Below are positions 6,786 to 61,635 of a DNA stretch of 64,000 nucleotides, in pieces. Below the pieces are notes generated by a model, which made no database searches, was not told the origin of the DNA, and worked only from the letters and a program-made list of their open reading frames with translations. This DNA comes from Malacoraja senta. Taxonomy: Eukaryota. The first letter of the stretch is position 1, and every line of letters starts with the position of its first letter. The position numbers and the translations under genes were made by a program. The stretch covers positions 18,230,001-18,294,000 of the forward strand of contig CM075988.1 of assembly GCA_038087875.1 (NCBI GenBank), given 5' to 3'.

Positions 6786-8009
6786 CATATTGCAGTGACG
6801 GGGTCCAAGCCTAGATTGGGGCCGTACAGACTCATCCTCGGTTCCGCACCCCGACTGACGGGGAAGAGATGGGAATCACGGATTCCCAACGTTCCCAGCC
6901 CTCGCTGCCTTGGACAATCAGTGGATTCCGCAGGTTCGGATTAATGGAACACGACACAAGAGGCAGCCAGGCTGGGCTTGAAAACTGTCAACTCGTCGGC
7001 TGAGAGCTGAATCCCATTATTCTCAGCACCACAAGGACATGGAATGAATATGCCATCAAGCAATTTATAACGACAGAAATGTTTTTCAATTTTTTTTTTT
7101 ATTAACCCAATTCAAAACTTGGACCAACAGAAGTGTGAAGGGAACAGAGCTGCTGGAAGGAAGGTAACCGCTGGGTGAGAAGAGGGCTGTGACAGTGTGA
7201 TTTGCACAGACACAGATGAATCACTGCAATCTCAAAAAGCACAAAATTATCCTGTCATAACATTCTTGCTCATAATGAAGTGGGCGACAGGGATAAAGCA
7301 CGCCTCGCAAATGATCACCAAACCATCCTGGCCGGAGTTGGAGGTGCATTGCAGGGGTTGCGATGCAGCAAGCGGAAACGACGCAACGCTGCCGCCCGCC
7401 CACACCTGCCCAGGGTCGACACGCAGAGAACGGACACAGTCCACGGGGATCGGGCAAGCTCACCAGTTTGTACGAAAAAGAGAGAGAGAGAGCGAGCAGC
7501 CCTGTGAATTACGCCCCGGTAATTAGCGTGAACGAAAACGGAGTTTGTTTCACACCGGGTTGCATTTCCTCCTTGTGTAGGAAGGAACTGCAGATGCTGG
7601 TTTACACCAAAGATAAAATATAAAATGCTGGAGTAACTCAGCGGGCCAGGCAGCATCTCTGGAGAGAAGGAATGGGTACATACCTTCTGAAAGCAAATTG
7701 ACATCAACTTGCCAAAGCTTCCATAACATGACTGCCTCCCCCACCCTAATTCTCCAACTAGTTTCCCTGTCCTCCTGATTAATTTTACTGATTGTAAGCC
7801 TCCTTGTCACCTTCCCCTCTGCTGACAATGAACAATTCTACATTTCCTTTAGCATTGTCTGCTTTGATCTGTCGTTTTCACACTTTACCCTTTCATATCT
7901 CTAAGAAGAAGGGTCTGAAGAAGGGTCTCGAACCGAAACGTCGCCTATTCCTTCGCTCCATAGATGCTGCCTCACCCGTTGAGTTTCTCCAGCATTTTTG
8001 TCTACCCAT

Positions 8010-8500
8010 CATAGAAACATAGAAAATAGGTGCCGGAGTAGGCCATTCGTCCCTTCGAGCCTGCACCGCCATTCAATATGATCATGCCTGATCATCCAAC
8101 TCAGTATCCTGTACCTGCCTTCTCTCCATACCCCCTGATCCCTTTAGACACAAGGGCCACATCTATCTCCCTCTTAAATATAGCCAATGAACTGGCCTCA
8201 ACTACCTTCTGTGGCAGAGAGTTCCAGAGATTCACCACTCTTCTGTGTGAAAAATGTTTTTCTCATCTCGGTCCTAAAGGATTTCCCCTTTATCCTTAAA
8301 CTGTGACCGCAACATCGGGAACAATCTTCCTGCATCTAGCCTGTCCAACCCCTTAAGAATTTTGTAAGTTTCTATAAGATCCCCCCTCAATCTTCTAAAT
8401 TCTAGCGAGTACAAGCCGAGTCTATCCAGTCTTTCTTCATATGAAAGTCCTGACATCCCAGGAATCAGGTCTGGTGAACCTTCTCTGTACTCCCTCTATC
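8010..8500 (-). mobile_element. CR1 LINE 3' fragment
   Basis: [33 protein letters not shown], 3' UTR and tagaaaca tail. Confidence 0.88.
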
Positions 8501-8954
8501 ATATCTCTATGTCACCCTCTCCAGGGGAAGAGTCTCGACCCGAAAACATCACCCATTCCTCCTCTCCAGAGATGCTGCCTGTCCCGCTGAGTTACTCCAG
8601 CATTTTGTGTCTATCTTCTGCATCTGATCCTTGATAAGTTGGAGAACATGCCAAATAACAGGAGAATCGTTGGATTTGTTGTCCAGACTAATTCACCCTC
8701 AAGCACAACGCAGCAGCAGAGCAGGTTCAGGGTTGTCTGCACAATGAGTCTGCTGCTGACAATCAAGAGCTTCAGGATTCAAGCTAATTTCCCTGTGCAA
8801 CGTGACCCCACTTGTAAACCAATTCCTCCCGCAGCAGAGAGATCGAGGGAGCGCGCACCTGTCTTAAGTGATAGGAGTAGAATTAGGCCATTCGGACCCT
8901 TCTACCAAGTCTACCCCGCCATTGAATCATGGCTGATCTATCTCTCCCTCCTAA

Positions 8955-9160
8955 AGGGCCTGTTTTCAAAATGTTCAACATGTTGAAAATCCAGCGGTGA
9001 CCAGAAAAAGGCACGACTCTTTGGGCGACTACTCACTACCAAACAGGCGTCACCCCACGCATCTTTTTCTGGTCGCTGCTGGATTTTCAACATTTTGAAT
9101 TTTTCGGCGACCTGCTGCGACTATGACGCCGAAAACAATCGCATAAGTGGGACTGGCCCT
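8955..9160. mobile_element. Degenerate Harbinger-type MITE
   Basis: Termini agggcctgt.../...gtgggactggccct; inserted at the TAA of a CR1 3' UTR (ctccctcc-taa-cccc). Confidence 0.6.
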
Positions 9161-9260
9161 TACCCCCAGTCTTCGGATTGTGGGAGGAAACTGAAGTTCT
9201 CGGAGAAAACCTACGCGGTCACAGGGAGAACGTACAAACTCCGTACAGACAGTACCGGTA

Positions 9261-9745
9261 GGACCAAATGGCCTCTGTGTTGCAAACTTTTATGATAGAG
9301 TCATACAGCATGGTGACAGACTCTTTGCCCAATATGTCTATGCCAACCAGATTTTATAGCTGGGATAGTCACATCTGCCTGTGTTTGGTCCATATCACTC
9401 AAAACCCTTCCTATCAAGTACCTCCAAATGTCTTTTAAATGTCACCATTGTACCCAGCTCAACAAGTTTACTCTGGCAGCTCGTTCCATGTACCCATCTC
9501 TGTGCAAAGAAATTGTCCCTCTGGTCTTTTTTAACCTTTGCTCTCTTAGCTTAAAGCCATGCCCTCTAGCTCTGAACTCCTCCACCCTCGGACCAAAGAC
9601 TGTGACCATTCACCTTATCCATGCCTCTCATCATCTTGTACATCTCAATAAGATCATGATCGTAACTTATCGGAGCAGAATGAGTCCATTCTGCCCATCG
9701 AGTCTACGCCATTCAATCATGGCTGATCTATCTCTCCCTCCGAAC
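9261..9745 (+). repeat. Copy 1 of a ~480-bp direct duplication (partner ~16165-16640)
   Basis: Shares private sequence such as cagattttatagctgggatagtcacatctgcc and the same TE-TE junctions with 16165-16640. Confidence 0.85.
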
Positions 9746-11963: not shown

Positions 11964-12356
11964 ATATTTTGTCACAGTGTTTTCCATTTAGGAAGTAGTT
12001 GAAAACTTGGGAGAGGAGGGGGGGGGGGACTTGGAAGGCCGCAAGAAATGGTCTCCAATCAAGCTCCCTCAGTGAATAATGCTCTAAGGTTCTTTGAGGA
12101 ATTATTGTTCTGTTTACAGTTTGCCTGCAGATGTAAGCTCAGATTTGAACGTGGCGTTGGATACATGTAAGGAACAATCAAGTTTAACGTTTATGGTTAA
12201 TGGCTTTTTGTATTGACTTGAAACTGCGCTGAGTGTGTGCGTGGAGTATTGTTCCTCCCACAAAAGTTTTCTGACCAGAGGCTCACCAAGAACATAGACA
12301 CAAAATGCCGGAGTAACTCAGCGGGTCAGGCAGCATCTCTGGAGAAAGGAATAGGT

Positions 12357-12648
12357 GATTCTTAGAATAAAGGGGAGGCCATTTAAGACTGAGGTGAGAA
12401 GAAACGTTTTCACCCAGAGAGTTGTGCATTTGTGGAATTCCCTGCCACAGAGGGCAGCGGACGCCAAATCACTGGATGGATTTAAGAGAGACTTAGATAG
12501 AGCTCTAGGGGCTGGTGGAGTCAAGGGATATGGGGAGAGGCAGGCACGGGTTATTTATTGGGGACGATCAGCCATGAATGGCTGTGCTGGCTCGAAGGGC
12601 CGAATGGCCTCCTCCTGCACCTATTTTCTATGTTTCTATGTTTCTATG
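12357..12648 (+). mobile_element. CR1 LINE 3' fragment nested in a Penelope-derived repeat
   Basis: LRIKGRPFKTEVRRNVFTQRVV plus (tttctatg)n tail. The host repeat reads ggaataggtga| before it and resumes gtgatctttcgggtcgagacc after it. Confidence 0.85.
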
Positions 12649-15376
12649 TGATCTTTCGGGTCGAGACCGTTCTTCAGACTGAGAGTCAGGGAGAGGGATA
12701 GTAGAGATATGACAAGGTACAAGGAACAAATGAATGAAAGGTAATGAACAGAACAAATCGCAAGGCCATTGATGATCTCCTATTGTTGACCAAGAATATC
12801 CTGGAGAATGTGAGCGGGCGCTCAGCAGCCAAGGCAAGTCCAAGTCACCTCTCAGTAGCAGTCAAACAAGGTCAAATGTGGTGAGTTAACCATGCTACAC
12901 TCCGACGCGGAAACTCTGTTCCCATACCTTCATTGAAACCAGTGAGGCAAGTTCAACATGCATACCTCACTCCATCAGTGGACCGACTGACTTAAGGAGG
13001 CCATTCGGCCCACAGGGTCCTTGCCAGTTGCCAGAAGAGCAATCTGGTTTGTCCTCCGGCCTGTTCCCTTTCTCACCTGCCACAACTCCCTTTTGATTCT
13101 TTGCCACCTACCTACATCAGGAGCACACCATCGTGGAGCCTACAGGAGGCGCCTGCCTCTAAAAGGCTGCCAATATCATCAGACCCACACCACCCTGGCC
13201 ACGCTCTCATCTCACTGCTACCCTTGGGAAGAAGCCTGAAAACCATGAATGCCCACTTTTGACGCCAGGTCTTGAACATAGGTTCAATGTGAAGGGGAAA
13301 AGAATTAATAGGAATCTGAGGGGTAACTTTTTAACACAAAGGTTGGTGGGTGGAACAAGTTGCCAGAGGAGGTAGTTGAGGCTGGGTCTATCCAAATGTT
13401 TAAGAACCAGTTAGACAGGCACATGGAGATAGGATAGGTTTGGAGGGATATGGACCAAGTGCAGGCAGGTGGGACTAGTGTAGCTGGGACATGTTGGCCG
13501 TTGTTGGGCCAAAGGGCCTGTTTCCACACTGCATCGCTCTATGACTATAAAAAACAAAAATGTTAACCGCTTCTCTCTCCACAGTTGCCGCCTGATTGGC
13601 GGAGTTTTTCTGGCATTTTTCTGTTTCTATTCAGAATATCCAGCATCTGCAGTATTATTTATTTTTCATTTACCAATTCTTAGAATCTGAGCATTAAATT
13701 ATTAGACAGGGTTACAGAATAATTGGGAATTTAAGTTGGAAGATTGATTCTAGATTATGTGATATTAAGGTAAATTTGTTGAGTGGCCAGGGAGAAATTA
13801 TTTTATCGGTTGGGAGTCTGGGTGAGAAACACTGAGAAGATGGTAGAACGCTGTGACTCTCTTCTACATGCAACCATGGAGAAAGCTCATCAGTACTCTA
13901 CTCACTTAGATGATTGAGGAGGTTCAGTATGTCAACTAATCATCTATCGCACCTTTATAGCTGCACAGTGGAAAGCATCACGGCCTGGTTTGGCACCTCG
14001 AGAACAGAGAGCGGTGAACACTGCCTGGTCCGGAACGCGGGCACTTAGAGGGCCTAGGCCTCGAAAAGGCGCAAGGATCAACAGAAGGCACTGCACGAAG
14101 GCCGCCAATATCATCAAAAAGCCTGCCTATCACCAAATCAGGAAGACGGTACAGGAGCCTGGAACCCTAACCGCCCGTTCATCAGAAGCAGCTTCTTCCC
14201 TCTAGAAAGGCCCTTGAACATGGCACAACACTAACCTCAGCCGACTGTGATCTTCTAGGATCGACAATCTTTAGTTGCACTGCGACTTTTGCCTTTTAGC
14301 AGCATTCATGAGTCACAGTAAAGCTTCGCAACAACGGACCTACGCACAGCGGACTCCGGTTCGAGCGGACCCAGGCTGCCGTTGCACCCGCCCCCACTTC
14401 CGCCAGTTACCCAACCAGCCCGCTCCGCTCGACGTGCATCCGGTGACGAAAGCGGGGAGAGCGAGCAGCAAAGAAGGCAGCGTGGGCACCGGGTCCGACC
14501 CCGGAGCCTCGCGTGTGGGGCCTGGGGCTCTGCGGCTCCCCGGCCTGGCAATTCCCACGTGTTCATCCCACTCCTCCCCAACCAACTCCCCTCACGCGGT
14601 TGTAGCGGACAATCGGCAATAACGGACACCATCCCCCTCCCCCCCCTCGTGGTCCGTTATTGCCAGCGTTTACTGTACTTAATATTACTGATTATTAATG
14701 TATTCTATTATTGATTATTATACATTTATCTGTGTGTTAAGAGTTCATGGGCCTGTTAAACTGCAGCAAGTAAGAATTACATGTTTCTGTTGCTGGTATG
14801 AATGATAATAAACACTCTTTGACTCTTGATTCAATGCACGCTGCATCTTTTAAATCCACGATTAACTGGCTTCTGTTGACGACTGATACAAACGGACATG
14901 GGGAAAGTTGTGTCATGGGTTATGCCAGTGCGGTGATCGATGGGCCAGGCTGCCAGACCCTGTTTCTGGCTGTTCCCCGCCCATGGGAATTACTAATGGC
15001 TTCCTTGGATTTCACAAACTCCAAGGGAATGCCTTAAAAGCATAATTTTCATAGGGCCAGCAACCTAATTATTAAAAACAAGACCTGGTCGTCTCTCTGC
15101 TCATCGACTCAATCTTCCTCAGATAAAAACAATATGCTGATGGAGCTGGACAGGTTTCAAGATTACATTTCTGTGCTAATATCTACTCGATGCCTTACTG
15201 AGAGTTTAGCTGAGTCTTGTATTTGTCAGCTTCCAGTGGCCCCAGCGATTACCACAGAACTGCCACCAATGCTCTGCTAGCCCCAGATATCTACAAAAAT
15301 GCCTCCTCCCCCCCAGACATGCTCTGTAACTCCTGTCGCAGTGGTGAAGGGGGAGGGGGGACCCCTTTCACAAAGA

Positions 15377-15958: not shown

Positions 15959-17548
15959 GTAAAAGGATCTGTAAGCATTTCAGATCAGATCCTGTGTCTC
16001 TGAAGAATGGTCTCCAAGTGCACAGCGACTCTGCTTATCGCTCACAGCTGGAGACCGACCTGCTGAGTATTTCCCGGGTTTCCCATTTTTATTTTAGATT
16101 TCCAGCATCTGTAGTTGACTTTCATGAGTTTGAAAAAATCAATTTCTGCTGGGATGGATATGATGGACCAAATGGCCTCTGTGTTGCAAACTTTTCTGTT
16201 AGAGTCATACTGCATGGCGATAGACTCTTTGGCCCAATATGTCCATGCCGACCAGATTTTATAGCTGGGATAGTCACATCTGCCTGTGTTTGGCCTATAT
16301 CACTCGAAACCCTTCCTATCAAGTACCTTTGGACATTTGGTCTTTTAAATGTCACCATTGTACCCAGCTCAACAAGTTTGCTCTGGCAGCTCGTTCCATG
16401 TACCCGTCTCTGTGCAAAGAAATGTCCCTCTGGTTCTTAACCTTCCCCCTCTTAGCTTAAAGCCCTCTAGCTCTGAACTCCTCCACCCTCGGACAAAAGA
16501 CTGTGACCATTCACCTTATCCATGCCTCTCATCATCTTGTACATCTCAATAAGATCATGTTCATAACTTATCGGAGCAGAATGAGACCATTCTGCCCATC
16601 AAGTCTCATCCGCCATTCAATCATGCCTGATGTATCTTTCCTTCCTTCTCAACCCCATTCTCTTGCCTTCTCCCCATAACCCCTGATACCCATACTAATC
16701 AATAATCTATCAATCTTCACCTTAAAAATATCCATTGTCCTGGCCTCCACGGCCTTCCGTGGCAACGAATTCCACAGATTCACCATCCTCTGACTAAAGA
16801 AATTCCTCCTCTCAGGATAACCTCTCAGCTCCATGGAAAAACATCCCTGCCTATACAACCTCTCCTTACATCTCAAGCCCTCGATTCCAGGTAATACCAG
16901 GTGAATCTTCTCTGCACCTTTCCAGCTTAATGACATCCTTCCCATGGCAAGACAACCAGAACTGCACCAACACTCCAAATGTGGCCTTTGATCTCGAGCT
17001 TATTATCTTTTAAAGGAGTGCGGATGCTCTATTTTTCAGATGGCTGCACATTTCCCTCGCAGGAAGGAAGGAGAATCATTCCGGACATTTGATTTTGCAA
17101 TCCTGAAGCCCTGACAGCCAGGTCTCCATTTAGCGAAAAACACAAAGCGCTGGAGGAACTCAGCGGGTCAGTCAGCATCTGTAGAGGGAGTGGGCTGATG
17201 ATGTTTTGGGTCTGGACCCTTCTTCAGATTGGTAAGAGTAGTGGGGAGAAGCTGGAAAGGACTCCCCTTAACTTCATCATTCTGACGAAGGATACCGACC
17301 CGAAGCGCCATTATGTCCATTCCCTCCATAGATGCTGCCTGACCCGCTGAGTTCCTCCTACCTGGAGTTCCTCCAGCACTGTGTGTTTTTCGTCAAGATT
17401 CCAGCATCTGCAGTTCCTTGTGTCTCCATTTTAGGGCTCACTTTAGACTCGTACAAACTGCTGAGCTTTCATTGCACAGAAAGAGTTCAAAGAAAGTCAA
17501 GAGCAGCATTGAGGACAAAAGCAAAATGGCTGTGGGTACTGTACCTTC

Positions 17549-17748
17549 NNNNNNNNNNNNNNNNNNNNNNNNNNNNNNNNNNNNNNNNNNNNNNNNNNNN
17601 NNNNNNNNNNNNNNNNNNNNNNNNNNNNNNNNNNNNNNNNNNNNNNNNNNNNNNNNNNNNNNNNNNNNNNNNNNNNNNNNNNNNNNNNNNNNNNNNNNNN
17701 NNNNNNNNNNNNNNNNNNNNNNNNNNNNNNNNNNNNNNNNNNNNNNNN
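17549..17748. other. Assembly gap (200 N)
   Basis: Run of 200 N; the round length suggests an arbitrary scaffolding gap. Confidence 0.99.
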
Positions 17749-19891
17749 GACTGGAATGGAGACCAGCGTGGAAACAGGCCCTTCAGCCCATTGAGTCCCT
17801 GCTGGCCATCAGCCACCCATTTACATCGACCCTACAGTACACTAATTCCGCCTATTTTATTTCTCCAATGTTTGGGGTGATACTGGAGCACCTTGGAGAA
17901 ACCCATGTGATGTGCAAACTCCACACAGGCAGCAGGGATTGAACCCGGGGTCACTGGCGCCGTGAGGCAGCGGCTCTACCAACTACGCCACCGTGCCACA
18001 GCACTAAGAGAGGCCGATAGTTTTAGGGGGTTGGATTTTGTCAAACTCTTCTTTCATCGTGATTACTGAGCTGGGTTTCGCTTGCAACACCCAGCACACA
18101 TACAACAACCAGCGTGCGTGAGGGGAGAGTCGAGGCTCCGTATCAATCCCGAGAGGCTGGGAAAACATCAGACATTAAAATGTTAAAACGCTGTCGACAG
18201 GCTCAGTGCAAACTCCCGCTGATCCTGGGATAAACGGTGGAGCAAGTGGGTGACTGACGTAAGTGGCAATCTCAGCTTGCAGGCTGGTTTTGGTGGGGAA
18301 GTGGAGAGGTGAGTTTGCAATGGTTCGGCAGTGCTCTCTCAGCCGGCTATGAATGACAAGAGATCACAGCACAGCAGCACAGAGCCTCATTTATACTCGA
18401 CGTTCCAGCTGAAACTGACGGCAGGAGAACTCTGGTCAATTTTACAGAGACACGTTGACTGAACACTTACATAGCGAGGCAGCAACCTGTGGCAGGGGGA
18501 TAGTACATTTGCAACAATATCAAAACCACAGCCTTTCTCACCTTGCTTCGGACAACAGAAGGAACAGATTATTTTTTAATTGGAAAGAAATGCCGTCGGA
18601 ATATAGATTCTGTAGAAACCAAATGAGCTCACAATGCGTGTTAGACAGTACATTGCAGTCAACGAAGGAAGACTCAAATGAAAATCAGGACAGTTTGAAC
18701 CCAGCTGCAGTTAGGTTGCCACATTAAATTTGAGAAGCCGTTGCCACAATACCGCCGGATTGCGTAGTCATACAGCGTGGAAACAGGCCCTTCGGCCCAA
18801 CTTGCCCATACTGGCCAACATGTCCCCGCTACATTAGTCCCACCTGCCTACATTTGGCCAATATCCCGCCAAACCAGTCCTATCCATGTACCTGTCTAAC
18901 TGTTTCTTAAACGTTGGGATAGTCCCTGCCTCAATTACCTCCTCTGGCAGCTCGTTCTATAGACCCACCACCCTTTGTGCGAAAACGTCACCCCTCAGAT
19001 TCCGATCAAATCTTTTCCATCGCAGGGCGTGAAGATGCCAGAATTGCCGCGATCCGTAATGTGCAAGAATTTCCCCTTCCTGTTATAGAGATCAGAGCAG
19101 GACGGATGTCACCAATTACCAGTCTGACAGCAGCCAGCTGTTAGTGAGGCAGAGTGAGGTAGTTTTAGCTGGAAATGGCCATTTTCCAGAGCGGGCTGAT
19201 GGTGCCTGTTCAATAACGGGGCCCAACCACTTGACGCACAGGACTTCATTTGCACAAAGTGCTCCAGTAATAGGCTTCATCTGAAGTGCTGGCACTAGAA
19301 GCCACGAGGCTAAGATGCAGAATCCTCGACATCAGAAATGCCACTGGGGTGCAGGCAATTACTGGCAGCGATTGTTCAGAGAAGGCAATTTAGGGTGAGC
19401 GCTCTCCAACTCAGGTATTTTCTGTTTCGTTCCACTAACAAATTGGGTCTCTTTCAGATGTGTAGGGAGGAACTGCAGATGCTGGTTTAAACCGGAGACA
19501 GGCACAAAAAGCCAGAGTAACTCAGCGGGTCAGGCAGCATCTCTGGGGAAAAGGAATAGCTGACGTTTCAGGTCGAGACCCTTTTTCAGACACTCACTCA
19601 TTCAGATGTTGAGTGCTTCCTTTGCCAGCAGCAAACTTTTGGGGGTGATGTCACGGGAAGTGCATGACTTCAGGCCGATTTCCTTACTGTGAATCAGACA
19701 CGGTTTGCGATTACCGCCTCCCTTTCACTGACAAGCCACAGCCCAGTCTGCCTGGGACACCTCTGTGTACAGGAGGGGGCAAAGTAGTGTTCCGCTGTAG
19801 GTATTACTTAGCAGCACAGTCTGAGTCATCTTCCGCTCAGCGCCGGAGGCCTGGGTTCGATCCTGACCAGGGGTGCTGTCTGTACAGACTT

Positions 19892-23412: not shown

Positions 23413-23582
23413 CGTATACGTGGAGGAGGTAATCATCGTACGACTCTCCGATCTCGTTGAACGCCCTGCAGCGATACGTTCCGTTGTCGGATTTATTTAG
23501 CGATTCGAGGACTAAGTTCTCGACGGATATAATGGCTCGCTCGGGCATTTCCTCATCTAGCCGCTGCCAGGTGAGGGCCGGC
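23413..23582 (-). CDS. CADM1: CADM1 exon 7 (rest of Ig3)
   Basis: PALTWQRLDEEMPERAIISVENLVLESLNKSDNGTYRCRAFNEIGESYDDYLLHVY. Acceptor ctccacag|, donor |gtacgt, 170 nt, phase 2/1. Confidence 0.95.
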
Positions 23583-24313
23583 CTGTGGAGCAACACGTGT
23601 TAGGCTGAGTCCTCCAGCTTCCCATTCCAGTGTCGTTAACAAAGAACATTCTAGTCTAGTTTAGTTGATTGTCCCATGTACCCGAGATACAGTGGAAATC
23701 TTTTGTCGTGCGCTAACCAGTCAGTGGAAAGAGAATACGCGATTACAATCTAGCTGTCCACCGTGTACAGTTACCGGATAAAGGGAATAACGTTTAGCCC
23801 AAGGTAAAACCAGGAAAATCCAATCTAAGATAGTCTGAGGGTCACCATTGAGATAGATAGTAGTTCAGGACTGCTCTCTGGTTGTGGTAGGATGGTTCAG
23901 TTGCCTGATTACAGCTGTGAAGAAAACTGTCCCTGAATCTGGAGGTGTGCAGTACAGCACAGGAACAGGCCCTTCGGCCCACAATGTCCATGCCGAACAT
24001 GATACTAAGTTAAACTAATCTAGTCTGCCTGCACATGATCAACCCCCCTCCTTTCCCTGCATATCCATGTGCCCATCTAAAAGCCTCTTTAACGCCACTT
24101 TCGAATATCTCTCCACCACCACCCCTGGCAGCAGGTTCCAGGCTCCCCAACACCCTAAAGTGTCCCTAAAGACAGCACCCATCGTCAGGATGGAACCCGA
24201 GACTCTGGCGCCGTGAGGCAGCAGCTCAGCCGCCCAGACCAGAGATCTCCATGGGAAATTGAGTGGATGGACCATGTACTGGGATGGGCACGTTGGTTGA
24301 AGTGGACACTTAC

Positions 24314-24410
24314 TGTGGCTTGCCGTTGGCTATGCAGGTCAGCTCCAACGTGTCACCTTCTCGTGTCGGGCCTTGCGGGTAGCTCACTGTCACCTGTACC
24401 TGGGGCTTAT
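24314..24410 (-). CDS. CADM1: CADM1 exon 6 (first part of Ig3)
   Basis: Read by hand; not in the ORF track in this frame. (Y)[31 protein letters not shown](Q). Acceptor tttccccag|, donor |gtaagt, 97 nt, phase 1/2. Confidence 0.94.
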
Positions 24411-25913
24411 CTGGGGAAACAAGCAGCAACATCAGAACACTCTCCGAATGCAAAGCCCTCCGTATCTTACCGGGTCAGTGCACAGCCAATGATTCACTCA
24501 TTCAATGATACTTCACTGTCACATGTACCTAGCTAGAGTGACATTCTTTGTTGTGTACACAGCTCATCTCACCTTGGCAGAGTACACAAGGAGTCGCCAT
24601 GTTTCTGGCAGCGACAAAGTTCAATGAACAATCTCATCTACGACCAGGCCCGCCGCTGTATGTGGCTGGTTGCCCCTTCACTCACAGCCCCACCCCCCTT
24701 CATTCTCCATAGCCCCTCCTGCCGGGTCCCCTGATGTTCTCGTGCCCCCCCCCCCCCCCGCCTGCTCGCACTTGGCGTCTCTCCCCGCTGTCGACGGCCC
24801 ACCCGCTGGGGCACGGGTTGTTTGGCTCCGCGACGCACCTCGGGAACCATCTGCCGAGACTCGGGATGACACTGACTCTAGTCGTAGTTGGCACCCACAC
24901 TGAACAGCAGCAGGTCCAAGCGGTACAAGTCATTGTGTGACCACAGTTGGAGCACTACGGGCAGTTCTAGGCGCCCAGCTACAGGGAAGGTCATTAATTG
25001 GAGAGGGCAAAGAAGAGATTCGCCAGGATGCTACCTGTCCTTGCGAGCTTGAGTTGTTGAGAGAGGTTGGATAGGCGTGCTCTCTTTCCTTTGGAGCATT
25101 GGAGGCTGAAGGGTGACCTTATTGAGGTGCGGGGCATGGATAAAGTGAACATTCTCTGAACGCCCACACCCATTGATTACACCCATTGATCTGATCAGTA
25201 AATCACATCCACCACTATCCTCTGTCTCCTATCACCAAGCTAATTTTCGATCCAGTTAGCTCACACAGCTTTCATCCCATGTGCTCTAACCTTCTGGACC
25301 AGCCAACCATACAGGACTTTGTCAGCAGCTTTGCTAAAGTCCATATGTACCTCGACTCATCTTATTTTACTGGTTACCTTCCAAAAAAATGCAATCAGGA
25401 GTTGTTACTCGGGATGGCCCCTGCACAAAACCATGCTGAGTCTGAGTCAGTCCATGCCTTTCCTGGTGAATGTAAATCCTGTGCCAATGCTTTTCCTATG
25501 TCCATGACGATGTGGACCCAAGATCAAAAAGTTGCAAAAAAAACACAAACAAAAATAGAAACACAAAAGATGCAGGGTTATGAATCTCTGGATTTCTCTG
25601 CTGTCAATACTCAGTCTTTACAAGGACTTTGAAGGACGGGTCTGTCATGGGACAGAGAGAATGGGCAGGAGAGTGGATGAACTTTATGATTAGCTATGAT
25701 CTATTGGACACCACCACAAGCTCAAGAGGCTTAATCCTGTTGAATGTCTGTGGTTCAATGGTTCAATGATGCTTTTATTGTCACATGTGCGAAGTTCAAT
25801 CACACGGTGAAATTATTTTCTTACAAGCAGACCGGTAGAGTATCACCAGACCATCCCCGATTAGCAGTTGTACAGAAATAGTCCACAGAGCCCGCATGCA
25901 AGAGATGCCACGT

Positions 25914-26147
25914 GTAGGAAAGTACTGTAAATGATGGCTTACTCCAAAGATAGACACAAAAAGCTCAAGTAACTCAGCGGGTCAGACAGCATCTCTGGAG
26001 AGAATGAATAAGTGATGTTTTGGATCGAGACGCTTCTTCAGAAGAAGACCTGTCTGAAGAAGGGTCTCGACCCGAAACGTCACCTATTCCTTTTCTCCAG
26101 AGATGCTGTCTGACCCGCTGAGTTACTCCAGCTTTTTGTGTCTATCT
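25914..26147. mobile_element. Penelope-derived fold-back insertion with ~16-bp TSD
   Basis: Inverted arms 25948-26042 and ~26053-26147, flanked by gcaagagatgcca(c/t)gt at 25898-25913 and 26148-26163. Confidence 0.8.
26054..26081 (+). ncRNA. Minimal type I hammerhead-ribozyme-like motif (representative + copy)
   Basis: CUGAAGA-A-GGGU(CUCG)ACCC-GAAAC-GUC: hammerhead core boxes, stem II and a palindromic minimal stem III. Stem I is only about 2 bp, so activity is unproven. Confidence 0.55.
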
Positions 26148-42404: not shown

Positions 42405-42885
42405 TTTAGCCTGTCCCAAAATCCATAAGCAGAACTGCCCTGGCAGACCCATTGTTTCTGCCTGCTCCTGTCCAACTGAAATTATTTCCACATACCTCGA
42501 TTCTATCCTATCCCCTTGTCCACTCCTTTTCCATCTAAGTCCAAGACACCTCACACACCTTTTGACTCTTTAATAACTCTTGGTTCCCTCATCTTTACTA
42601 TGGTTCCCTCATCCATGATGTAATATCCCCACCAGGAAGGCCTTAAGGCCCTCCGGTTCTTCCTTGACCCAGCCAATTCCCTCTTCAAAAACTCTCCTCC
42701 ACCCTAGCAGAACTGGTCCTCGCCCTGAACAACTTCTCCTTCGGCTCCTCCCAGTCTGAAGAAGGGTTCCGACCCGAAACGTCACCTATTCCTCTTGCCC
42801 AGTGATGCTACTTGACACGCTGAATTGCTCCAGCATTTTGTGTCCATCTTCGGTATAAACCGACATCTGCAGTCCCACTCTACAC
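42405..42885 (+). mobile_element. Internally deleted Penelope-like element (RT fragment joined to terminal repeat)
   Basis: PKIHKQNCPGRPIVSACSCPTEIISTYLDSILSP and downstream IPHQEGLKALRFFL/LAELVLALNNFSF are Penelope RT motifs. They join directly to the hammerhead-like repeat at 42756. Confidence 0.85.
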
Positions 42886-44307: not shown

Positions 44308-44682
44308 ATATAAGATTGTTAAGGGCCTGGACACACTAGAGGCAGGAAACATGTTCCCGATGTTGGGGGAGTCCAGAACCAGCGGCCACAGTTTAAGAAT
44401 AAGGAGTAAGCCATTTAGAACGGAGACGAGGAAACACTTTTTCTCACAGAGAGTGGTGAGTCTGTGGAATTCTCTGCCTCGGAGGGCGGTGGAGGCAGGT
44501 TCTCTGGATGCTTTCAAGAGAGAGCTAGATAGGGCTCTTAAAAATAGCGGAGTCAGGGGATATGGGGAGAAGGCAGGAACGGGGTACTGATTGGGGATGA
44601 TCAGCCATGGTCACATTGAATGGCGTGCTGGCTCGAAGGGCCAAATGGCCTACTCCTGCACCTATTGTCTGTTGTCTATTGT
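44308..44682 (+). mobile_element. CR1 LINE 3' fragment nested in a Penelope-derived repeat
   Basis: ORF 44351-44590 plus a (ctattgt)-type tail; it interrupts the Penelope-type arm that starts near 44270 and resumes near 44683. Confidence 0.88.
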
Positions 44683-45851
44683 CGACACAAAATGCAGGAG
44701 TAACTCAGCGGGTCAGGCAGCATCTGTGGAGAAAAAGAACAGGTGATGTTTTTGGGTCGATACCCTTCACATCAGTCTGATGAAGGATCTCGACCCAAAA
44801 CTTCACCTGTCCCTTCTCTCCAGAGATGCTGCCTGACCCGCTGAGTTACTCCAGCATTTTGTGTCTATCTGCCAGAGGTAGTTGAGACAGGTACAGTAAC
44901 AGCATTTAATATACAGTTGGACAGGTACATGGACAGGAAAGGTTTGGAGGGAGATGGACAAATGGAGGGAGATTGGCCAAATGCAGGAAAATGGGACTAG
45001 CTTAGAGGCGGCATCTTGGTTGGGCTGTTGGGCCTGTTTCCGTGCTATGTGACTCTCTCACCCTAAGTGTGATAGAGATGCACGTTGCAGTGCAGAGCTT
45101 ATCTTTAACATGGAAAGGCGACATAAAACGCACAACTAACAGTAACCAGTGACGTGAGTTAATCCCAGGAGTCATTAACTTACACAGTGTGTAGGGAGAG
45201 AAAAACAACTGAAACGTTCCCACGTCTTAGCCTCACAATCCTCGAACCTAGTAAATCAAAACAAGTCTATATTCCAAATCAGCAATCAGTTTTTAATTTT
45301 CCTGGATTAAAGCAAATGCCAGGATGGCAAGGAAGGTTTAAGAGATCGTGATGGTGACCATCCAGTTTTGGTGGGTGTCATTATCAAAGGCGACTTTGAT
45401 CATCACGACTTGCACTGATTGTAAAGGTTCCGTAACCTCCCCTTCGCAAGCAGTCCCTCCCCCCCCCCCCCCCCCCACACCCCCGTGAGACAAAGTTTGT
45501 GCAGGTAAAATGCATCTGGTCATCTCTACCTTCGATCTCTTGTGCAGAGCCTGTGAGCAGCCGGTGGTCGAGCAGAAGCAGAGAGAGGGAGGGAGGGAGG
45601 GAGAGAGAGAGTGAGTGAAAGAGAGAGGGAGAGAGACAAACAAGTTTAGAAGTCAGCATTGGCAGCATGCAACTACATCCCTTAAACAAATACATCGAGG
45701 GGGGGGGGGGCGGGAGGTGAATGGCGTCTATGACCAACTGTGCAGAGAGAACACTCTGCATCCTTCTGTGTATTAACGTGATGAAGTACTTAAACACCTC
45801 TACACAGCTCCAAGACCAGACAGCAGCAAGTGGGGACAGTGCAGTGCTAAC

Positions 45852-49831: not shown

Positions 49832-52725
49832 TCACCAACTTCTACAGATGCACCACAGAAAGCACTTTATCAGGATGCATCACAGCTTGGTTTGAGGACA
49901 GCTCCATCCAAAAAAAATTGCGGCGAATTGTGGATACAGCCCAGACCGTCGCACAAACCAACCTCCCTTCATTGACTCCATCTATAAACTTACGCTGCCT
50001 CAGCAAGGCCGGCAGCATAATCAAGGACGAGTCGCACCATGGCCACTCCCTCTTCTCCCCTCTCCCATCAGGCAAAAGGTATAGAAGTGTGAAAACACAC
50101 ACCTCCAGATTCAGGGACAGTTTCTTGCCTGCTGTTATCTGGCAACTGAATCATCAACGAGAGAGCAGGCTATTCTAGACTGGGTATTGAGTAATGAGGA
50201 AGGGTTAATTAGCAGTCTTGTTGTGTGTGCCCCCTTGGGCAAGAGTGACCATAATAATGTTGAGTTCTTCATTAGGATGGAGGGTGACATTGTTAATTCA
50301 GAAACAATGGTTCTGAACTTAAAGAAAGGTAACTTTGAGGGTATGAGACGTGAATTGCCAAGATTGACTGGCAATTAGTTCTAAAAGGGTTGACGGTGGA
50401 TATGCAATGGAAGGCATTTAAAGACTGCATGGATGAACTACAAAAATTGTTCATCCCAGTTTTTGGCAAAAGAATAAATCAGGGAAGGTAGTGCATCCGT
50501 GGATAACAAGGGAAATCAGGGATAGTATCAAAGCAAAAGATGATGCGTACAAATTAGCCAGAAAAAGCAGCATACCAGAGGACTGGGAAAAATTCAGAGA
50601 CCAGCAAAGGAGGACAAAGGGCTTAATTAGGAAAGGGAAAATAGATTATGAAAGAAAACTGGCAGGGAACATAAAATCTGACTGCAAAAGTTTTTATAGA
50701 TATGTGAAGAGAAAGAGATTAGTTAAAACAAATGTAGGTCCCTTGCAGTCAGAAACAGGTGAATTGATCATGGGGAACAAGGAAATGGCGGACCAATTGA
50801 ATAACTACTTTGGTTCCGTCTACACTGAGGAAGACATAAATAATCTGCCGGAAATAGCAGGGGACCGCGGGTCAAAGGAGATGGAGGAACTGAGTGAAAT
50901 CCAGGTTAGTCGGGAAGTGGTGTTGGGTAAATTGAATGGATTAAAGGCCGATAAATCACCAGGGTCAGATAGGCTGCATCCCAGAGTACTTAAGGAAGTA
51001 GCTCCAGAAATAGTGGGTGCATTAGTGATAATTTTTCAAAACTCTTTAGATTCTGGAGTAGTTCCTGAGGATTGGAGGGTAGCAAACGTAACCCCACTTT
51101 TTAAGAAGGGAGGGAGAGAGAAAACGGGGAATTACAGACCAGTTAGTCTAACATCGGTAGTGGGGAAACTGCTAGAGTCAGCTATTAAAAATGGGTTAGC
51201 AGCACATTTGGAAAGTGGTGAAATCATTGGACAAAGTCAGCATGGATTTACGAAAGGTAAATCATGTCTGACGAATCTTATCGAATTTTTCGAGGATGTA
51301 ACTAGTAGAGTGGATAGGGGAGAACCAGTGGATGTGTTGTATCTGGACTTGCAGAAGGCTTTCGACAAGGTCCCACATAAGAGATTAATATACAAACTTA
51401 AAGCACACGGTATTGGGGGTTCAGTATTGATGTGGATAGAGAACTGGCTGGCAAACAGGAAGCAAAGAGTAGGAGTAAACGGGTCCTTTTCACAATGGCA
51501 GGCAGTGACTAGTGGGGTACCACAAGGCTCAGTGCTGGGACCCTAGCTATTTACAATTTATATTAATGATCTGGATGAGGGAATTGAAGGCAACATCTCC
51601 AAGTTTGCGGATGACACTAAGCTGGGGGGCAGGGTTAGCTGTGAGGAGGATGCTAGGAGACTGCAAGGTGACTTGGATAGGCTGGGTGAGTGGGCAAATG
51701 TTTGGCAGATGCAGTATAATGTGGATAAATGGCCGATTAGGAAAAGGGGAGATGCAGCGAGACCTGGGTGTCATGGTACACCAGTCATTGAAAGTAGGCA
51801 TGCAGGTGCAGCAGGCAGTGAAGAAAGCGAATGGTATGTTAGCTTTCATAGCAAAAGGATTTGAGTATAGGAGCAGGGAGGTTCTACTGCAGTTGTACAG
51901 GGTCTTGGTGAGACCACACCTGGAGTATTGCATACAGTTTTGGTCTCCAAATCTGAGGAAGGACATTATAGCCATAGAGGGAGTGCAGAGAAGGTTCACC
52001 AGACTGATTCCTGGGATGTCAGGACTTTCATAAGAAGAAAGACTGGATAGACTCGGCTTATACTCGCTAGAATTTAGGAGATTGAGAGGGGATCTTATAG
52101 AAACTTACAAAATTCTTATGGGGTTGGACAGGCTAGATGCAGGAAGATTGTTCCCGATGTTGGGGAATTCCAGGACAAGGGGTCACAGCTTAAGGATAAG
52201 GGGGAAATCCTTTAAGACCGAGATGAGAAAAAACTTTTTCACACAGAGAGTGGTGAATCTCTGGAACGCTCTGCCACAGAGGGTAGTTGAGGCCAGTTCA
52301 TTGGCTATATTTAAGAGGGAGTTAGATGTGGCCCTTGTGGCTAAAGGGATCAGGGGGTATGGAGAGAAGGCAGGTACGGGATACTGAGTTGGATGATCAG
52401 CCATGATCATATTGAATGGCGGTGCAGGCTCGAAGGGCCGAATGGCCTACTCCTGCACCTATTTTCTATGTATTTATGTATGTATCCTACCACAGCCAGA
52501 GAGTAGACCTGACCTACTATCGACCTCATTGGTGAGCCTCGGACTCTCTGGCTTTGCCTTGCACTAATTCCCTTATCAAGTATCTGTACACTGTAGATGG
52601 CTCGATTGTAATCATGTATTTTCTCTCCACTGAGTGGATAGCATGCAACAAAAGCTTTTCACTGTACCTCGGTACACGTGACAATAAACTAAACTGTAAC
52701 TGTGAACTAAACTAAACTAAACTAA
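49832..52725 (+). mobile_element. Rex1/Babar-like LINE 3' fragment split by the CR1 insertion (parts 49832-50155 and 52484-52725)
   Basis: LTNFYRCTTESTLSGCITAWF...HHGHSLFSPLPSGKRYRSVKTHTSRFRDSFLPAVI; 3' UTR ends gtgacaataaac(taaac)n. The uninterrupted junction is seen in the copy at 10011-10295. Confidence 0.8.
50156..52483 (+). mobile_element. CR1-clade LINE (HER1-like), 5'-truncated, ORF2 disrupted
   Basis: Endonuclease C-terminus (LGKSDHN), then RT motifs KSPGSDRLHPRVLKE, NYRPVSLTS, QHGFTKGKSCLTNL, YLDLQKAFDKVPH, GVPQGSVLGP, KFADD. In-frame stops and a deletion; 3' UTR ends in a (tatg)-type tail. Confidence 0.95.
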
Positions 52726-53283: not shown

Positions 53284-53432
<149 letters not shown>

Positions 53433-53616: not shown

Positions 53617-53800
53617 TGTGCATGAAAGAACTGCAGATGCTGGTTTAAATCAAAGGTAGACACAAAATGCTGGAGTAACTCAGTGGGTCAGGCAGCATCT
53701 CTGGAGAGAAGGAATGGGTGACGTTTCGGGTCGAGGCCCATTCCTTCTCTCCAGAGATGCTGCCTGACCCACTGAGTTACTCCAGCATTTTGTGTCTACC
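53617..53800. mobile_element. Penelope-derived fold-back insertion inside a CR1 3' end
   Basis: Near-perfect inverted arms ggtagacacaaaatgctggagtaactcagtgggtcaggcagcatctctggagagaaggaatggg and its reverse complement; flanking repeat agtcaaact at 53606 and 53802. Confidence 0.78.
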
Positions 53801-56024: not shown

Positions 56025-56055
<31 letters not shown>

Positions 56056-56533: not shown

Positions 56534-57849
56534 CAGTGAAGTTGAGACTAAAGACAGACAGTGGCTTCATTCTGCCGCTGGCTGCTTGTGACCGTATCCT
56601 GCAAGCAGCGACCAACATTGGCACGGTGTACAGCGGATGCCTGGGCTACCACTGAATCAAGGGCACCAGTGGATGGCACACTGTGCCACAGCATGCTGGC
56701 AATTTTCAACTTACAATTCTGTGCACAGTAAAATGTCCAGCTCAGGCAGGGTGGCAGAGGACTTAGGAAATCAGAGGATGTGTAATAAGCAAGCAGTGAG
56801 CATTTAGTGCCGAGATAGAAGGGCCGCAGGGGACCAGGAACAAATACACTGGCCAGGTTGCTCTTGGATAACTGTGTTCAGTTTCACTCACCCTGCTGTT
56901 GGAAGGATGTCGTTAAATTGGAAAGAGTAGAGAGAAAATTTAAAAGGATGCTGCCAGGGCCTGTGCTAAAGGGAGAAGCTAGGCAGACTAGGACTTTATT
57001 CCTTGGAGCGCAGGGCGCTGTGCGGTGATCTTACTGAGGTGCATAAAATCAAGACGGGGATAGAATGAATCTTTTCCATTAGTCTTTTAGGGTAGGTCTT
57101 TTTTGAGAGAGGCAAGAACTAGAGGGCATAGGTTTAAGGTGAGAGAGGAAAGATTTAATATAAATCTTTAAGGGGCAACTTATTTACACAAAGGGTGGCA
57201 AAAATGCTGGAGAAACTCAGCGGGTGAGGCAGCATCTATGGAGCAAAGGAATATGTGACGTTTCGGGTCGAGACCCTTCTTCCGACTTACAACTTATTCA
57301 CACGAAGGGTGGTGGTTGTACTGAAGGAGCTGCCAGAGGAGGAGGTAAAAGACAGACACTAAAACAACATTTAAAATACACTAGGACAGGTACATGGACA
57401 GGAGAGGTTTGGAGGGAATTGAGTCAAACACGGGGAAATGGGACTAGCTTCGATGGAGCATAGATGTGTTGGGTTCCTGGTCAAGCCACCTCCATCGACA
57501 CTCTCTCAGGCAGGACTTGTGGATTCCACTGAAAATGTACATTTTCATGACTGCTGTACAGATACTGATCTGGCCATCGTCGAAAGAGTCTTCAGAAGGC
57601 GTTGCCCCAAAAGGGCTACCTGTACCATCCGCACCATGGCCCACACCACCCTGGCCACGCTCTCATCTCACTACTACCATCGGGAAGAAGGTACAGGAGC
57701 CTGAATACCTGGTTCAAGAACAGCTTCTTCCCAGCGACCAGCAGGCTCTTGAACACTGCACGACACTAACCTCAGCAACTGTGGTATTCTATGATCTCTG
57801 TCTTTGGTTGCACGACTTATTTCGTTTTTTGCACTATTATAGTTACTTA

Positions 57850-58158: not shown

Positions 58159-59332
58159 TAAGTATTACTGATTCCAAACTTGTGGTAGCATTGATTAGTG
58201 AACATTGATCTGTGTGTATTTTGCATTAATGGCCCTGTTAAGCTGCAGCAAGTAAGAATGTATTCTTCCTTTGCCTGTAGGTATGACAATTAAACAGTAT
58301 TGACTCTTGAAATAACTGAAGAGCTGGCTCCAGTGGCCAAGGCAAACAGCCCATGGACATGTACTAAACCCAAGCGATCCTATGCTTTGACTGGGATCGG
58401 TTGCAAAATATAAAACTCTCAGCTCGTTAGTTCTGTGGCCTTTACTGAAAAACAAATCGAAGTAATCAGCTGGTGGGGTTCTAGGTTGGGTTTATGCATT
58501 AGACAAGCTCCACCACAAGAACAGTAAACTGTTGGAATATCTTCATAAAACCTGCATCACGTCTCCAGAGTATCCAAAGTGGAATTCTTTGCCACAGAAG
58601 GAACTGGAGGACAAGCCAGTGGATATTTGTACGGCAGAGATAGATAGATTTTGGATTAGTACATCTGTCAGAGGTTATGGGGAGAAGGCAGAAGAATGGG
58701 GTTCAGAGGGAGAGATAGATCAGCCATGATTGAATGGTGTAGACTTGATGGGCCGAATGGCCTAATTCTACTTTCCCTTATGACTCTTTATGACAATGTT
58801 TGATCCCATATTTATTGATACAGAAGGGAAAGAGTTACCTGAGGGGTAACTTTTTTACACAAAGGGTGTACTTTGATTTATTTCTCAGTAAAGGCCACGG
58901 AACTAAAATGGTGGAAGGAGGCATTTGGAGCCAGCTGCTGGAGGAGATAGTTGAGGCAGGTACTAATGCAACGTTTAAGAAACATTTAGACTGGTAGTGT
59001 AGGAAGGAACTGCAGATGCTGGTTTACACCGAAGTTGGTCCCAAAAAAGCTGAAGTAACTCAGCGGGTCAGGCAGCATCTCTGGAGAAAAGGAACAGGCG
59101 AGGGTTCGGGTCGAGACCCTTCTTCAGACTGAGAGTCAGGGGAGAGGGAAACGAGAGAAAAGGTACATCAACAGGTACATAGGATAGGTTTAGAGTGATA
59201 TGGGCCAAACGCAGGCAGGTGGGGTTAGTGTAGATGGGACATGCTGGCCGGTGTGGGCAAGTTGGGTCGATGGGCCTGTTTCCACGCTCCACGACTATGA
59301 ATAAGTGAATCATAGGACACAGAGTTTGAGCA

Positions 59333-59640
59333 GGTGGCGGCCGCAGTAGAGTTGCTGCCTTACAGCGCTTGCAGCGCCAGAGACCCGGGTTTGAACCCGA
59401 CTACAGGTGCTGTCTGTATGGAGTTTGTACTTTCTCCCCGTGACCGCGTGCGTTTTCTCCGAGATCTTCCGTTTTCTCCCACACTCCAAAGGCGTACAGG
59501 TTTGTAGGTTAATCGGCTTGGTGTACGTGTAAAATTGTCCCTAGTGTGTGTAGGATAGTGTTAATGTGCGGGGATTGCTGGTGGGTGCGGACTCGGTGGG
59601 CCGAATGGCCTGTTTCCGCGCTGTATCTCTAAACTAAACA
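59333..59640 (+). mobile_element. tRNA-derived V-SINE (HE1-like), near full length
   Basis: Degenerate A box, B box gggtttgaaccc, V-domain-like core ttctccccgtgaccgcgtg...cccacactccaaag...aggttaat, and a CR1-derived 3' tail ending ctctaaactaaac. Confidence 0.85.
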
Positions 59641-59723
59641 CATGGTCGAGAGTCAAGAGAGTTTTATTGTCATATGTTCTGAAACAGAACAATGACAATA
59701 AAACAACATATACGTGAACATAT

Positions 59724-61481
59724 TAGAAACATAGAAACATAGAAACATAGAAAGTAGGTGCGAGAGTAGACCACCAGGCCCATCGAGCCCGCACCGCCAT
59801 TCGCTCATGGCTGAACACTAAACAGACACCCTTACCCACAAACAGTAGACACAAGACACAGAACACAAGACACTACCCTCCCCTTTATATCGCTATCACC
59901 CCTCTCCACCCCAAGAACCGCGTGATCTCCTGGGGGAGGCAAAAAACCGGATAAAAACCCAGGTCCAATTCGGGAAAAAAATCCGGGAAATTCCTCTCCG
60001 ACCCCAATCCAGGCGATCGACACTTGTCCAGGAGATCACTCAGGTCTTACTATACTAACCATACCTAGGTCCATATCCCTGCCCTCTCCCCGTAGCCCCT
60101 TATCCCCTTGGCAGCTAAAAAAACATCTATTTTAGACTTAAATATATTTAATGTTTCTGCTTCCACTGCTCCCTGGGGCAGTGAATTCCATAAATTAACC
60201 ACCCTCTGGGTGAAGAAGTTCTTCCTCATCTCAGTTTTAAAAGAGCCCCCTCTTATTCTACAACTATGTCCCCTAGTTCAAGTTTCCCCGATCATTGGGA
60301 ACATCCTCGGTGCATCCACCCGATCAAGGCCCCTCACGATCTTATATGTTTCAATGAGATCGCCTCTCATTCTTCTAAACTCCAAAGAGTAGAGTTCCAG
60401 CCTACTTAACCTTTCCTCATATGTCAATCCCCTCATTGCAGGAATTAATCTTGTAAACCTTCGCTGCACTGCCTCCAGGGCCAGTACATCCTTTCTTAAG
60501 TATGGACCCCAGAACTGTACACAGTATTCCAAATGTGGTCTCACTAATACTGTGTACAGCTGCAGCAAGACCTCCGTGTTTTTATACTCAATCCCCCTAG
60601 CAATAAAGGCCAAAACTCCATTGGCCTTCCTGATTGCTTGCTGCACATGCATACTAACTTTTAGTGATTCATGTACTACTACCCCTAGATCCCTTTGCGT
60701 TGCATTACAACGCAGCTCCACCTCATTTAGAAAATAACTTGCCCTATCATTTTTTTTCCCAAAGTGAATGACTTCACATTTATTAGTATTAAATTTCATC
60801 TGCCAAGTTGTTGCCCACTCACCTAGCTTATCTATATCCTTTTGCAGACTCTTCCTATCCTCCTCATCCCCTACTTTTCCTCCCATTTTTGTATCGTCCG
60901 CAAATTTTGATATATTACACTTGGTTCCCTCCTCCAAATCATTTATATAAATTGTGAACAACTGGGGTCCCAGCACCGACCCTTGCGGAACCCCGCTAGT
61001 TACCGGTTGCCATCCCGAGTATGAACCATTTATCCCCACTCTCTGCTTCCTATTTGTTAGCCAATCCTCTACCCATGCTAATATATTACCCCCAATCCCA
61101 AGTATACCACATCCACCGGTTCCCCTTTATCCACCCGGGTTGTTACTTCCTCAAAGAATTCGAGCAGATTCGTTAAACAGGACTTCCCCTTCACAAAACC
61201 ATGCTGGTTCTGTCCGATGAAGTCATGTTTATCCAAGTGCCCCGTTAGTGTTTCTTTAATAATTGTCTCTAACATTTTACCCACCACCGATGTTAGACTA
61301 ACCGGTCTATAGTTACCCGCCTTCTGTTTACTTCCTTTTTTAAATATAGGTGTTACATTGGCCATTTTCCAATCCACTGGGACCGTTCCTGCCTCCAGGG
61401 AGTTTTGGAAAATTATCACCAATGCATCCACAATCCCCCCCGCTATCTCCCTCAAGACCCTTGGATGTAATCCATCAGGCC
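59724..61481 (-). mobile_element. CR1-clade LINE, second subfamily, 5'-truncated with internal deletion
   Basis: ORFs 61078-61566 and 60278-61039 carry GPDGLHPRVL, NYRPVSLTS, GVPQGSVLGP, KFADDTK. Tail is (tagaaaca)n on + at 59724-59753. The 3' UTR is longer than and different from that of the 50-kb copy. Confidence 0.93.
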
Positions 61482-61607
61482 CATAACAAACAACAACAAA
61501 AAGTGCAGACGAAAGGAACTGCAGATGCTGGTTTACACCGAAGATAGACACAAAGAGCTGGAGCAACTCAGCGGGACAGGCAGCATCTCAAGAGAAAAGG
61601 AATGGGT

Positions 61608-61635
61608 GACGTTTCGGGTCGAGACCCTTCTTCAG
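61608..61635 (-). ncRNA. Minimal hammerhead-like motif on the CADM1 sense strand
   Basis: The reverse complement of gacgtttcgggtcgagacccttcttcag is the intact motif CUGAAGAAGGGUCUCGACCCGAAACGUC. Confidence 0.5.

Follow-up and report, generated by a model that had tools for sequence, protein, structure and literature searches.

Hammerhead motifs in skate CADM1 introns: probable decaying terminal-repeat insertions of a Neptune-type Penelope-like element

Short repeats that carry the letters of a minimal hammerhead ribozyme are scattered over both strands of a 64,000-nt stretch of the genome of the skate Malacoraja senta (hereafter the window; G000:C12:18,230,001–18,294,000 of a 1.94-Gb genome) that holds part of the gene CADM1. 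The question raised by this locus is whether the copies transcribed with the gene could act on its pre-mRNA, as an earlier note on this DNA had proposed, by co-transcriptional cleavage or by pairing as dimers. The answer reached here is that the repeats are very probably short terminal-repeat insertions of a Neptune-type Penelope-like retrotransposon with a minimal hammerhead, and likely decaying passengers without action on CADM1 RNA. They match the terminal repeat of such an element in sequence and anatomy, most of them are broken, many are paired head-to-head, their 5′ ends lie just before the ribozyme core, and the intact ones show no strand bias in genes.

The pattern CTGANGA..GAAAC was found nine times in the window compared with 1.43 expected from shuffling, and a profile of the repeat gave 36 matches, 26 of which scored at least 50 bits (11 on the plus strand and 15 on the minus strand). 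CADM1 maps to the minus strand, with six exons inside the window as determined by tblastn with two skate CADM1 proteins and one sawfish CADM1 protein, confirming that the minus-strand copies are sense to the gene. All 15 copies named in the earlier note were recovered, at or a few bases from the positions given there; the list was correct as to position and was incomplete, and most of the copies in it are broken. A copy was called intact if it had the full core, a 4-bp stem II, a palindromic stem III and a 2-bp stem I. Three of the 26 strong copies were intact (C3 at 26054, 34939 and 42756), every one of them antisense to CADM1, a distribution that is not significant taken alone. None of the 15 strong sense copies was intact.

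Among the sense copies, G8 is changed to A in the one at 19589 (stub with tail, 19460–19592), U4 to G in the one at 57284 (57198–57289, with a near-exact duplication on its flanks) and A15.1 to C in the one at 59127 (stub with tail, 58997–59132). Four others keep the core letters, which speaks for the possibility that the gene is modulated by sense copies that cut its pre-mRNA during transcription, either as monomers or as dimers. The first of these, at 12677 (12648–12683), is truncated, with stems II and III broken and its 3′ part swapped for another repeat, and the second, at 31419 (31327–31423), has a U-G pair in stem III. The best two, at 33692 (33562–33697, with tail) and 61635 (61513–61640), keep the core and stems II and III with just 1 bp in stem I; they are 28 kb apart in different introns, and the copy at 61635, the best of all, is predicted to be misfolded, with a stem II probability of 0.01. 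The same possibility is favoured by further intact sense copies to the left and right of the window and by the intronic hammerheads known from amniotes (PMC6765202).

Strand bias was determined in a sample of 1.139 Mb made up of 16 regions, namely CADM1 plus 15 stretches bounded by fibronectin-III or spectrin hits on the same strand; six loci picked because they hold the repeat were excluded from every count, and one of the 16 regions was without a copy. The sample contained 609 repeat copies, 429 of them strong, and 56 of the 609 (~9%) were intact. The results showed that 18 of 33 intact copies in confirmed gene spans were sense (95% confidence interval 0.36–0.72), compared with 153 of 322 other copies (Fisher p 0.47). 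When the region right of exon 2 was included, the values were 27 of 51 (0.38–0.67) and 254 of 521 (Fisher p 0.66). The depletion of intact sense-strand copies in genes, proposed in the earlier note as a check, was thus not seen in the 16 regions. In addition, G12, which lies inside a CpG, was altered in 25% of 240 copies compared with 18–24% at flanking CpG positions. With no intact copy among the 15 sense copies, no sense depletion and G12 decaying at the CpG rate, and with a competing hairpin predicted (see below) and pLTR (pseudo-long terminal repeat) hammerhead monomers of type I reported as inactive and dimers as weak in vitro (PMC4209133), the idea that sense copies cut or pair within CADM1 pre-mRNA is extremely unlikely to be right. 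Even a cut intron need not harm the gene: a slow hammerhead within an intron is reported to have allowed splicing, while a fast hepatitis delta virus (HDV) ribozyme did not (PMC2995048). At least 10,000 exact hammerhead-bearing stubs are tolerated in the introns of a vertebrate genome with no strand selection to be seen, which speaks for these motifs being silent in host RNA.

The identification of the motif as a minimal hammerhead stood up, as it matches published features of minimal type I hammerheads (PMC4209133). The core (C3–A9, G12–A15.1 and U16.1–H17) is present in the parent element and in 140 of 609 copies, and the motif has a stem II with G10.1–C11.1 and an extra base after A9. Stem III is the palindrome ACGU, with C-G in 188 of at least 343 aligned copies and mostly CpG decay in the remainder. 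Stem I has 2 bp only, in line with a caveat raised earlier, and its predicted probability is ~0 (published stems have 4–5 bp, or 2 in D. virilis). In a second subfamily the loop is UUCG, the closing pair U-G and the triplet GUU. Rfam gave no hammerhead family match at E up to 5.

One alternative is that the likeness is a vestige: the motif would have lost cleavage in the active parent too and be retained for a promoter or priming role. Besides the 2-bp stem I, this alternative is favoured by the small number of 5′ ends at the cut site (see below) and by the absence of covariation: the compensatory changes expected across genomic copies were not in excess in stem II (11 double Watson–Crick changes observed, 10.2 expected), and the only stem change between the subfamilies was from U-A to U-G. 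An alternative hairpin also dominates. In the predicted fold in context, the core purines pair with pyrimidines past the cut site and the competing hairpin buries the core; the predicted probability of stem II was 0.00–0.03 in five of the six copies folded and 0.49 in one. Naiad elements are also reported to thrive without hammerheads (PMC8557442). On the other side, both subfamilies retain all the core letters, the extra base before stem II, G10.1–C11.1 and the palindromic stem III, and differ in the downstream columns. A vestigial motif strikes us as somewhat unlikely, and as regards CADM1 it is compatible with the passenger explanation.

The Penelope origin of the repeat, proposed in the earlier note, was supported by parent loci in which the repeat lies beside an open reading frame (ORF) for reverse transcriptase (RT) and a GIY-YIG endonuclease (EN). 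What is repeated corresponds to the pLTR and tail, i.e. the terminal repeat, of a Penelope-like element, apparently of Neptune type. It lies 3′ of the ORF stop in 14 of 20 endonuclease-bearing loci, with ~110 pyrimidine-rich bases between, and on both sides of the ORF in L191, L193, L194 and L207, the last being a 3.87-kb tandem unit. The L191 ORF of 1,226 aa matched RVT_1 (E 2e-5) and GIY-YIG (E 0.0015), both below the curated Pfam cut-offs; the parent ORF has a long proline-rich N-terminal part, and its first ATG is ~165 nt downstream of the hammerhead core. In L041 and L191 the linker that joins RT to EN reads C-X4-C-X-X-C, a trait reported as common to Neptune and Nematis (PMC8557442), which places the parent as Neptune- or Nematis-type by its linker motif. 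In the window, the GIY-YIG tail (34645–34749) and RT fragment (42385–42668) that had been read from the letters match the genome's own Penelope ORF (tblastn E 2e-8 and 8e-16). The first belongs to a Penelope-like 3′ end on the plus strand (34645–35056), which runs from the GIY-YIG tail through a pyrimidine-rich untranslated region (UTR) and an intact minimal hammerhead, with its C3 at 34939 and its cut predicted to fall after 34966, into the tail; the second is joined to the intact copy with C3 at 42756 and a tail (42385–42885, plus strand). Both are antisense to CADM1. Across the genome, 113,931 first-look candidates were obtained with a fragment of the C-terminal part of the ORF that lies next to the window, and exact 33-mer matches of the repeat numbered 10,212 (5,062 and 5,150 per strand).

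The elements at L191, L193, L194 and L207 are young, near-identical and full-length, with open frames of 1,224–1,247 codons, and judged from their sequences they were probably active recently. Partial tandems were observed at L270, L253 and L258, where a copy ends ~200–290 nt into the element and is followed, sometimes via an A-run, by a second copy that starts from the initiator-like A described below; from their letters, these joints look like template jumping.

Intact young ORFs, together with the ~9% of copies that are intact, speak for a further alternative, in which intact intronic copies would be latent sites, silent until the element protein is expressed and then refolded and cut in trans, to the detriment of host transcripts in tissues with element activity. 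In its favour, the ribozyme of an anole element is reported to cleave only with its protein, unprocessed RNA being the main template (PMC11167929). The same work places the protein-binding region within the first 172 nt of the anole ORF, which may count against latent sites in stubs; the absence of sense depletion, although the elements were plainly active in the germline, does count against them. This alternative is very unlikely.

The arrangement of the copies was compared with random placement. Head-to-head neighbours within 60 nt involved 187 of 505 copies (random mean 14.6, maximum 29), and tail-to-tail neighbours eight. No tandem excess was found, with 42 same-strand neighbours within 160 nt compared with 42.7 at random. 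The 93 pair junctions analysed were heterogeneous, many of them with microhomology, and at 239 loci the join is exactly symmetric and falls on the palindrome that precedes the core. In the window, 16 of the 26 strong copies sit in eight head-to-head pairs. Both cores are broken in the pair at 17136–17389 (17232 minus, 17276 plus; A15.1 and U16.1 changed in the plus copy at 17282), which adjoins a 200-N assembly gap at 17549–17748. In the pair at 25912–26147, the plus arm with C3 at 26054 is intact but in the predicted fold is trapped by a long hairpin, and the minus arm is broken; the plus arm of the pair at 26218–26388 (C3 at 26308) has a U-G pair in stem III. The plus-strand stub at 33804–33864 (the copy at 33805), head-to-head with the copy ending at 33697, has G12 changed to A, and the same change is present in both arms of the pair at 44682–44870 (plus copy at 44777). 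The fold-back pair at 38425–38592 is of the second subfamily, with its UUCG loop and its GUU triplet, and has lost its cores at the junction, and the pair at 53618–53800 is joined within the hammerhead, with one arm starting from stem II and the other from just past the cut site. A minus-strand stub that begins at the predicted cut site (7575–7677) lies head-to-head with the plus-strand stub at 7911–8006 (C3 at 7915; core intact, three of four stem II pairs), 234 nt apart. The other copies are a plus-strand stub with a broken core (8524–8616), minus-strand stubs without the core at 2617–2691 (5′-truncated, found by the profile) and 12294–12363, and a short plus-strand 5′ piece beside exon 4 (36135–36160).

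The ends of the insertions were also mapped. Their 3′ ends fall into two groups ~35 nt apart, 0–7 and 33–41 nt short of the tail end, and target duplications of at least 7 nt were found in 11 of 118 copies (shuffled mean 0.8). The core is reached by 288 of 433 copies, with 83 continuing into the UTR, 86 in inverted arrangement and 119 bordered by unique sequence. The 5′ ends pile up 0–5 nt before the core and peak at column 7, the A of TCAGTCT, three bases before it; 26 of the 119 solo copies with unique flanks and 16 of the 86 inverted arms start there. In solo copies, the loss per base was 7.8% at columns 5–10 and 0.2–0.4% at columns 31–50. As this peak falls before the core rather than on the cut site, mostly uncleaved templates appear to have been copied. 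The cut site itself (columns 37/38) was considered as the main 5′ end and rejected within the sample, with 4 of 671 profile starts and a loss of 0.38% per base. A spliced template, for which the pyrimidine tract and CAG before the core could speak, as in D. virilis, was also rejected: the listed flanks share no upstream exon, and target duplications abut some of the junctions. A spliced origin could still apply to host read-through RNA.

From the end positions and the anole work, we infer how priming and stopping may have proceeded. The element RT would prime at a nicked target, begin at two tail sites ~95 and 135 nt past the core start and copy mostly uncleaved RNA, usually stopping at or just before the hammerhead, either at the RNA 5′ end or by a stall. 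The product would insert singly, as a stub accompanied by a target duplication, and priming from both target strands would yield a fold-back pair joined by microhomology. Any ribozyme activity, as a dimer or with the element's protein, would benefit the RNA of the element and not the host gene, and the copies would decay after insertion.

A more specific version can be put forward tentatively, at somewhat less than even chances: the element RNA would start at the initiator-like A, the ribozyme would be a cap-removing switch at its extreme 5′ end, and the ~100–135-nt stubs and fold-back pairs would be integrated, internally primed 'strong-stop' cDNAs. The ribozyme's position at the extreme 5′ end would explain the 2-bp stem I. 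TCAGTCT fits the initiator consensus. An initiator-like motif has been reported in a rotifer pLTR (PMC3846280) and a TATA-less internal promoter in Penelope (PMC2377424). The peak of both solo and inverted-arm starts at this A, and some junctions with target duplications, favour such an RNA start. Of 46 5′-pLTRs that continue toward the ORF, 11 start at columns 2–15, and about half carry UTR upstream, which means that a start near column 7 is common but not the rule and counts against it, as does the lack of a clear cap-derived extra G at column 7 (six G, seven A and one T among 14 copies). A 3′ splice site or the palindrome at that A may be the explanation instead. If the RNA does start there, the genome would hold tens of thousands of fossils of the first step of Penelope replication.

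Several observations weigh against reading the repeats as silent stubs copied from uncleaved RNA. The strand test rules out strong depletion only (below ~36–38% sense), not mild depletion; besides CADM1 it covers fibronectin-III and spectrin genes, the extent of the genes being estimated from domain hits. At non-CpG positions, change was rarer in the core than in the flank (6.4% versus 8.9%, p 0.0006) in copies picked by alignment reach, a choice biased toward the core; copies picked by an upstream anchor, a choice biased against the core, gave the opposite result (13.5% versus 9.0%). The sense copies at 31419 and 33692, separated by 2.3 kb, both retain the core. Part of the 5′ pile-up is an artefact of UTR types absent from the references. 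Finally, a genome-wide pattern for copies starting at the cut site gave 340 matches compared with 84 at a control column, and some cleaved templates are possible; the pattern test is confounded, its upstream control being swamped by another element, and among the 100 cut-site matches listed about half resemble a direct-repeat deletion and ~17 resemble inversion joints.

Another alternative is that the stubs amplify independently, as a non-LTR retrozyme or a short interspersed nuclear element (SINE), and do not arise as side products of the autonomous element. Elsewhere in the genome, units derived from the pLTR do form tandem arrays (G000:C1:27,817,321–27,818,734; 28,902,543–28,907,184; 256,829,079–256,831,592), with units of 138, 384 and ~275 nt. 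The 384-nt unit carries an intact hammerhead and is retrozyme-like, and dimers could form from it; the 138-nt unit is without a hammerhead. Retrozymes have also been reported in one chondrichthyan (bioRxiv 2026.07.22.740005). The absence of a same-strand neighbour excess, the heterogeneity of the 93 pair junctions and the fit of the 3′ ends to the parent's two tail sites argue against this alternative, and we consider it improbable.

A different arrangement involving a pLTR piece was observed at L141–L146 (G000:C1, e.g. 37,246,601–37,248,900), where inverted ends of ~400 bp that include the piece enclose 1.0–1.7 kb of internal DNA. L142 has a 215-aa open frame that spans a pentraxin domain almost from end to end (PF00354, E 1e-55). 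Of 1,484 pattern matches, about 90 among the first 100 listed were of this type, possibly a gene-capturing DNA transposon or the flanks of a gene family.

The CADM1 exons in the window, all on the minus strand, are exon 2 (first half of the immunoglobulin V domain; 41370–41525, ends approximate), exon 3 (41023–41172), exon 4 (36225–36363), exon 5 (33044–33223), exon 6 (24313–24408) and exon 7 (23414–23587), placed by tblastn with the skate CADM1 proteins. The best PDB match of exon 3 is human CADM1 (4h5s_B, phmmer E 1e-18), and its closest protein relatives are CADM1 of cartilaginous fish. Exons 4 and 5 were also supported by spliced contigs, and their joint (33223/36225) was present in four of four runs of RNA contigs assembled from related organisms, in which the insertions may be absent. 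DNA contigs from related organisms did not bridge the sense copies. The transmembrane and stop exons lie 20–24 kb left of the window by tblastn. Exon 1 was not found by tblastn across 220 kb right of the window or by a genome search with a 40-aa query, so that copies right of 41.5 kb are assigned to intron 1 by inference only. A GC-rich, island-like stretch (L010:1640–1900) lies ~32 kb right of the window, on the upstream side of CADM1, with no match to skate exon 1. The splice donor of exon 4 has two repeats within 90 nt of it (36135–36225), the fragment mentioned above and another. RT fragments of another retroelement, of the long interspersed nuclear element (LINE) type, are at 50437–51546 (plus) and 60278–61587 (minus), with RVT_1 matches at E 4e-22, 3e-14 and 2e-7.

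For CADM1, then, the repeats most likely do not matter, and their value lies in the element. With sharply defined ends and intact young ORFs at hand, the function of Penelope hammerheads can be put to the test in vitro. The association of hammerheads with Penelope is already published. No paper on this repeat family in skates came up in the literature searches, and the supplements of PMC4209133 and of the 2026 preprint may list motifs from cartilaginous fish. With the minimal type I hammerheads of pLTRs (PMC4209133), the skate motif shares the CUGANGA and GAAA boxes, the extra base between A9 and 10.1, G10.1–C11.1, a palindromic stem III without a loop, single copies dispersed in their thousands and opposite-strand pairs. 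It has a 4-bp stem II and, as in D. virilis, a 2-bp stem I, compared with 4–5 bp in S. mansoni; its copy number is above the 4,000–9,000 quoted for coelacanth and Xenopus, and unlike the feature list given there it shows no covariation within the skate genome. With Neptune-type EN+ elements (PMC8557442; PMC3846280), the skate element shares RT with C-terminal GIY-YIG, a CX2-5CxxC linker, partial tandems, an adjacent inverted 5′-truncated copy, an optional 30–40-nt tail, target duplications of 8–15 nt and microhomology joins. It differs in that most skate insertions are the terminal repeat alone, and in the proline-rich extension of the 1,226-aa ORF. Two internal start sites giving the tail, extension of both target strands and an uncleaved template are common to the Anolis Poseidon element PAc (PMC11167929), the ORF of which begins inside the hammerhead, in contrast to the downstream first ATG in the skate. 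The non-LTR retrozymes (bioRxiv 10.64898/2026.07.22.740005) are likewise pLTR-derived, hammerhead-bearing and non-coding. They are tandem units with a hammerhead in each, whereas the window copies are solo or inverted, and such an arrangement was found only in arrays outside the window, e.g. L232. An intronic position is shared with the amniote intronic hammerheads and CPEB3 (PMC6765202). Those are single, conserved, host-maintained loci, whereas the skate copies are decaying repeats numbering, by extrapolation, in the hundreds of thousands, with ~7 × 10^5 hammerhead-bearing stubs genome-wide as extrapolated from the 429 strong hits in 1.139 Mb.

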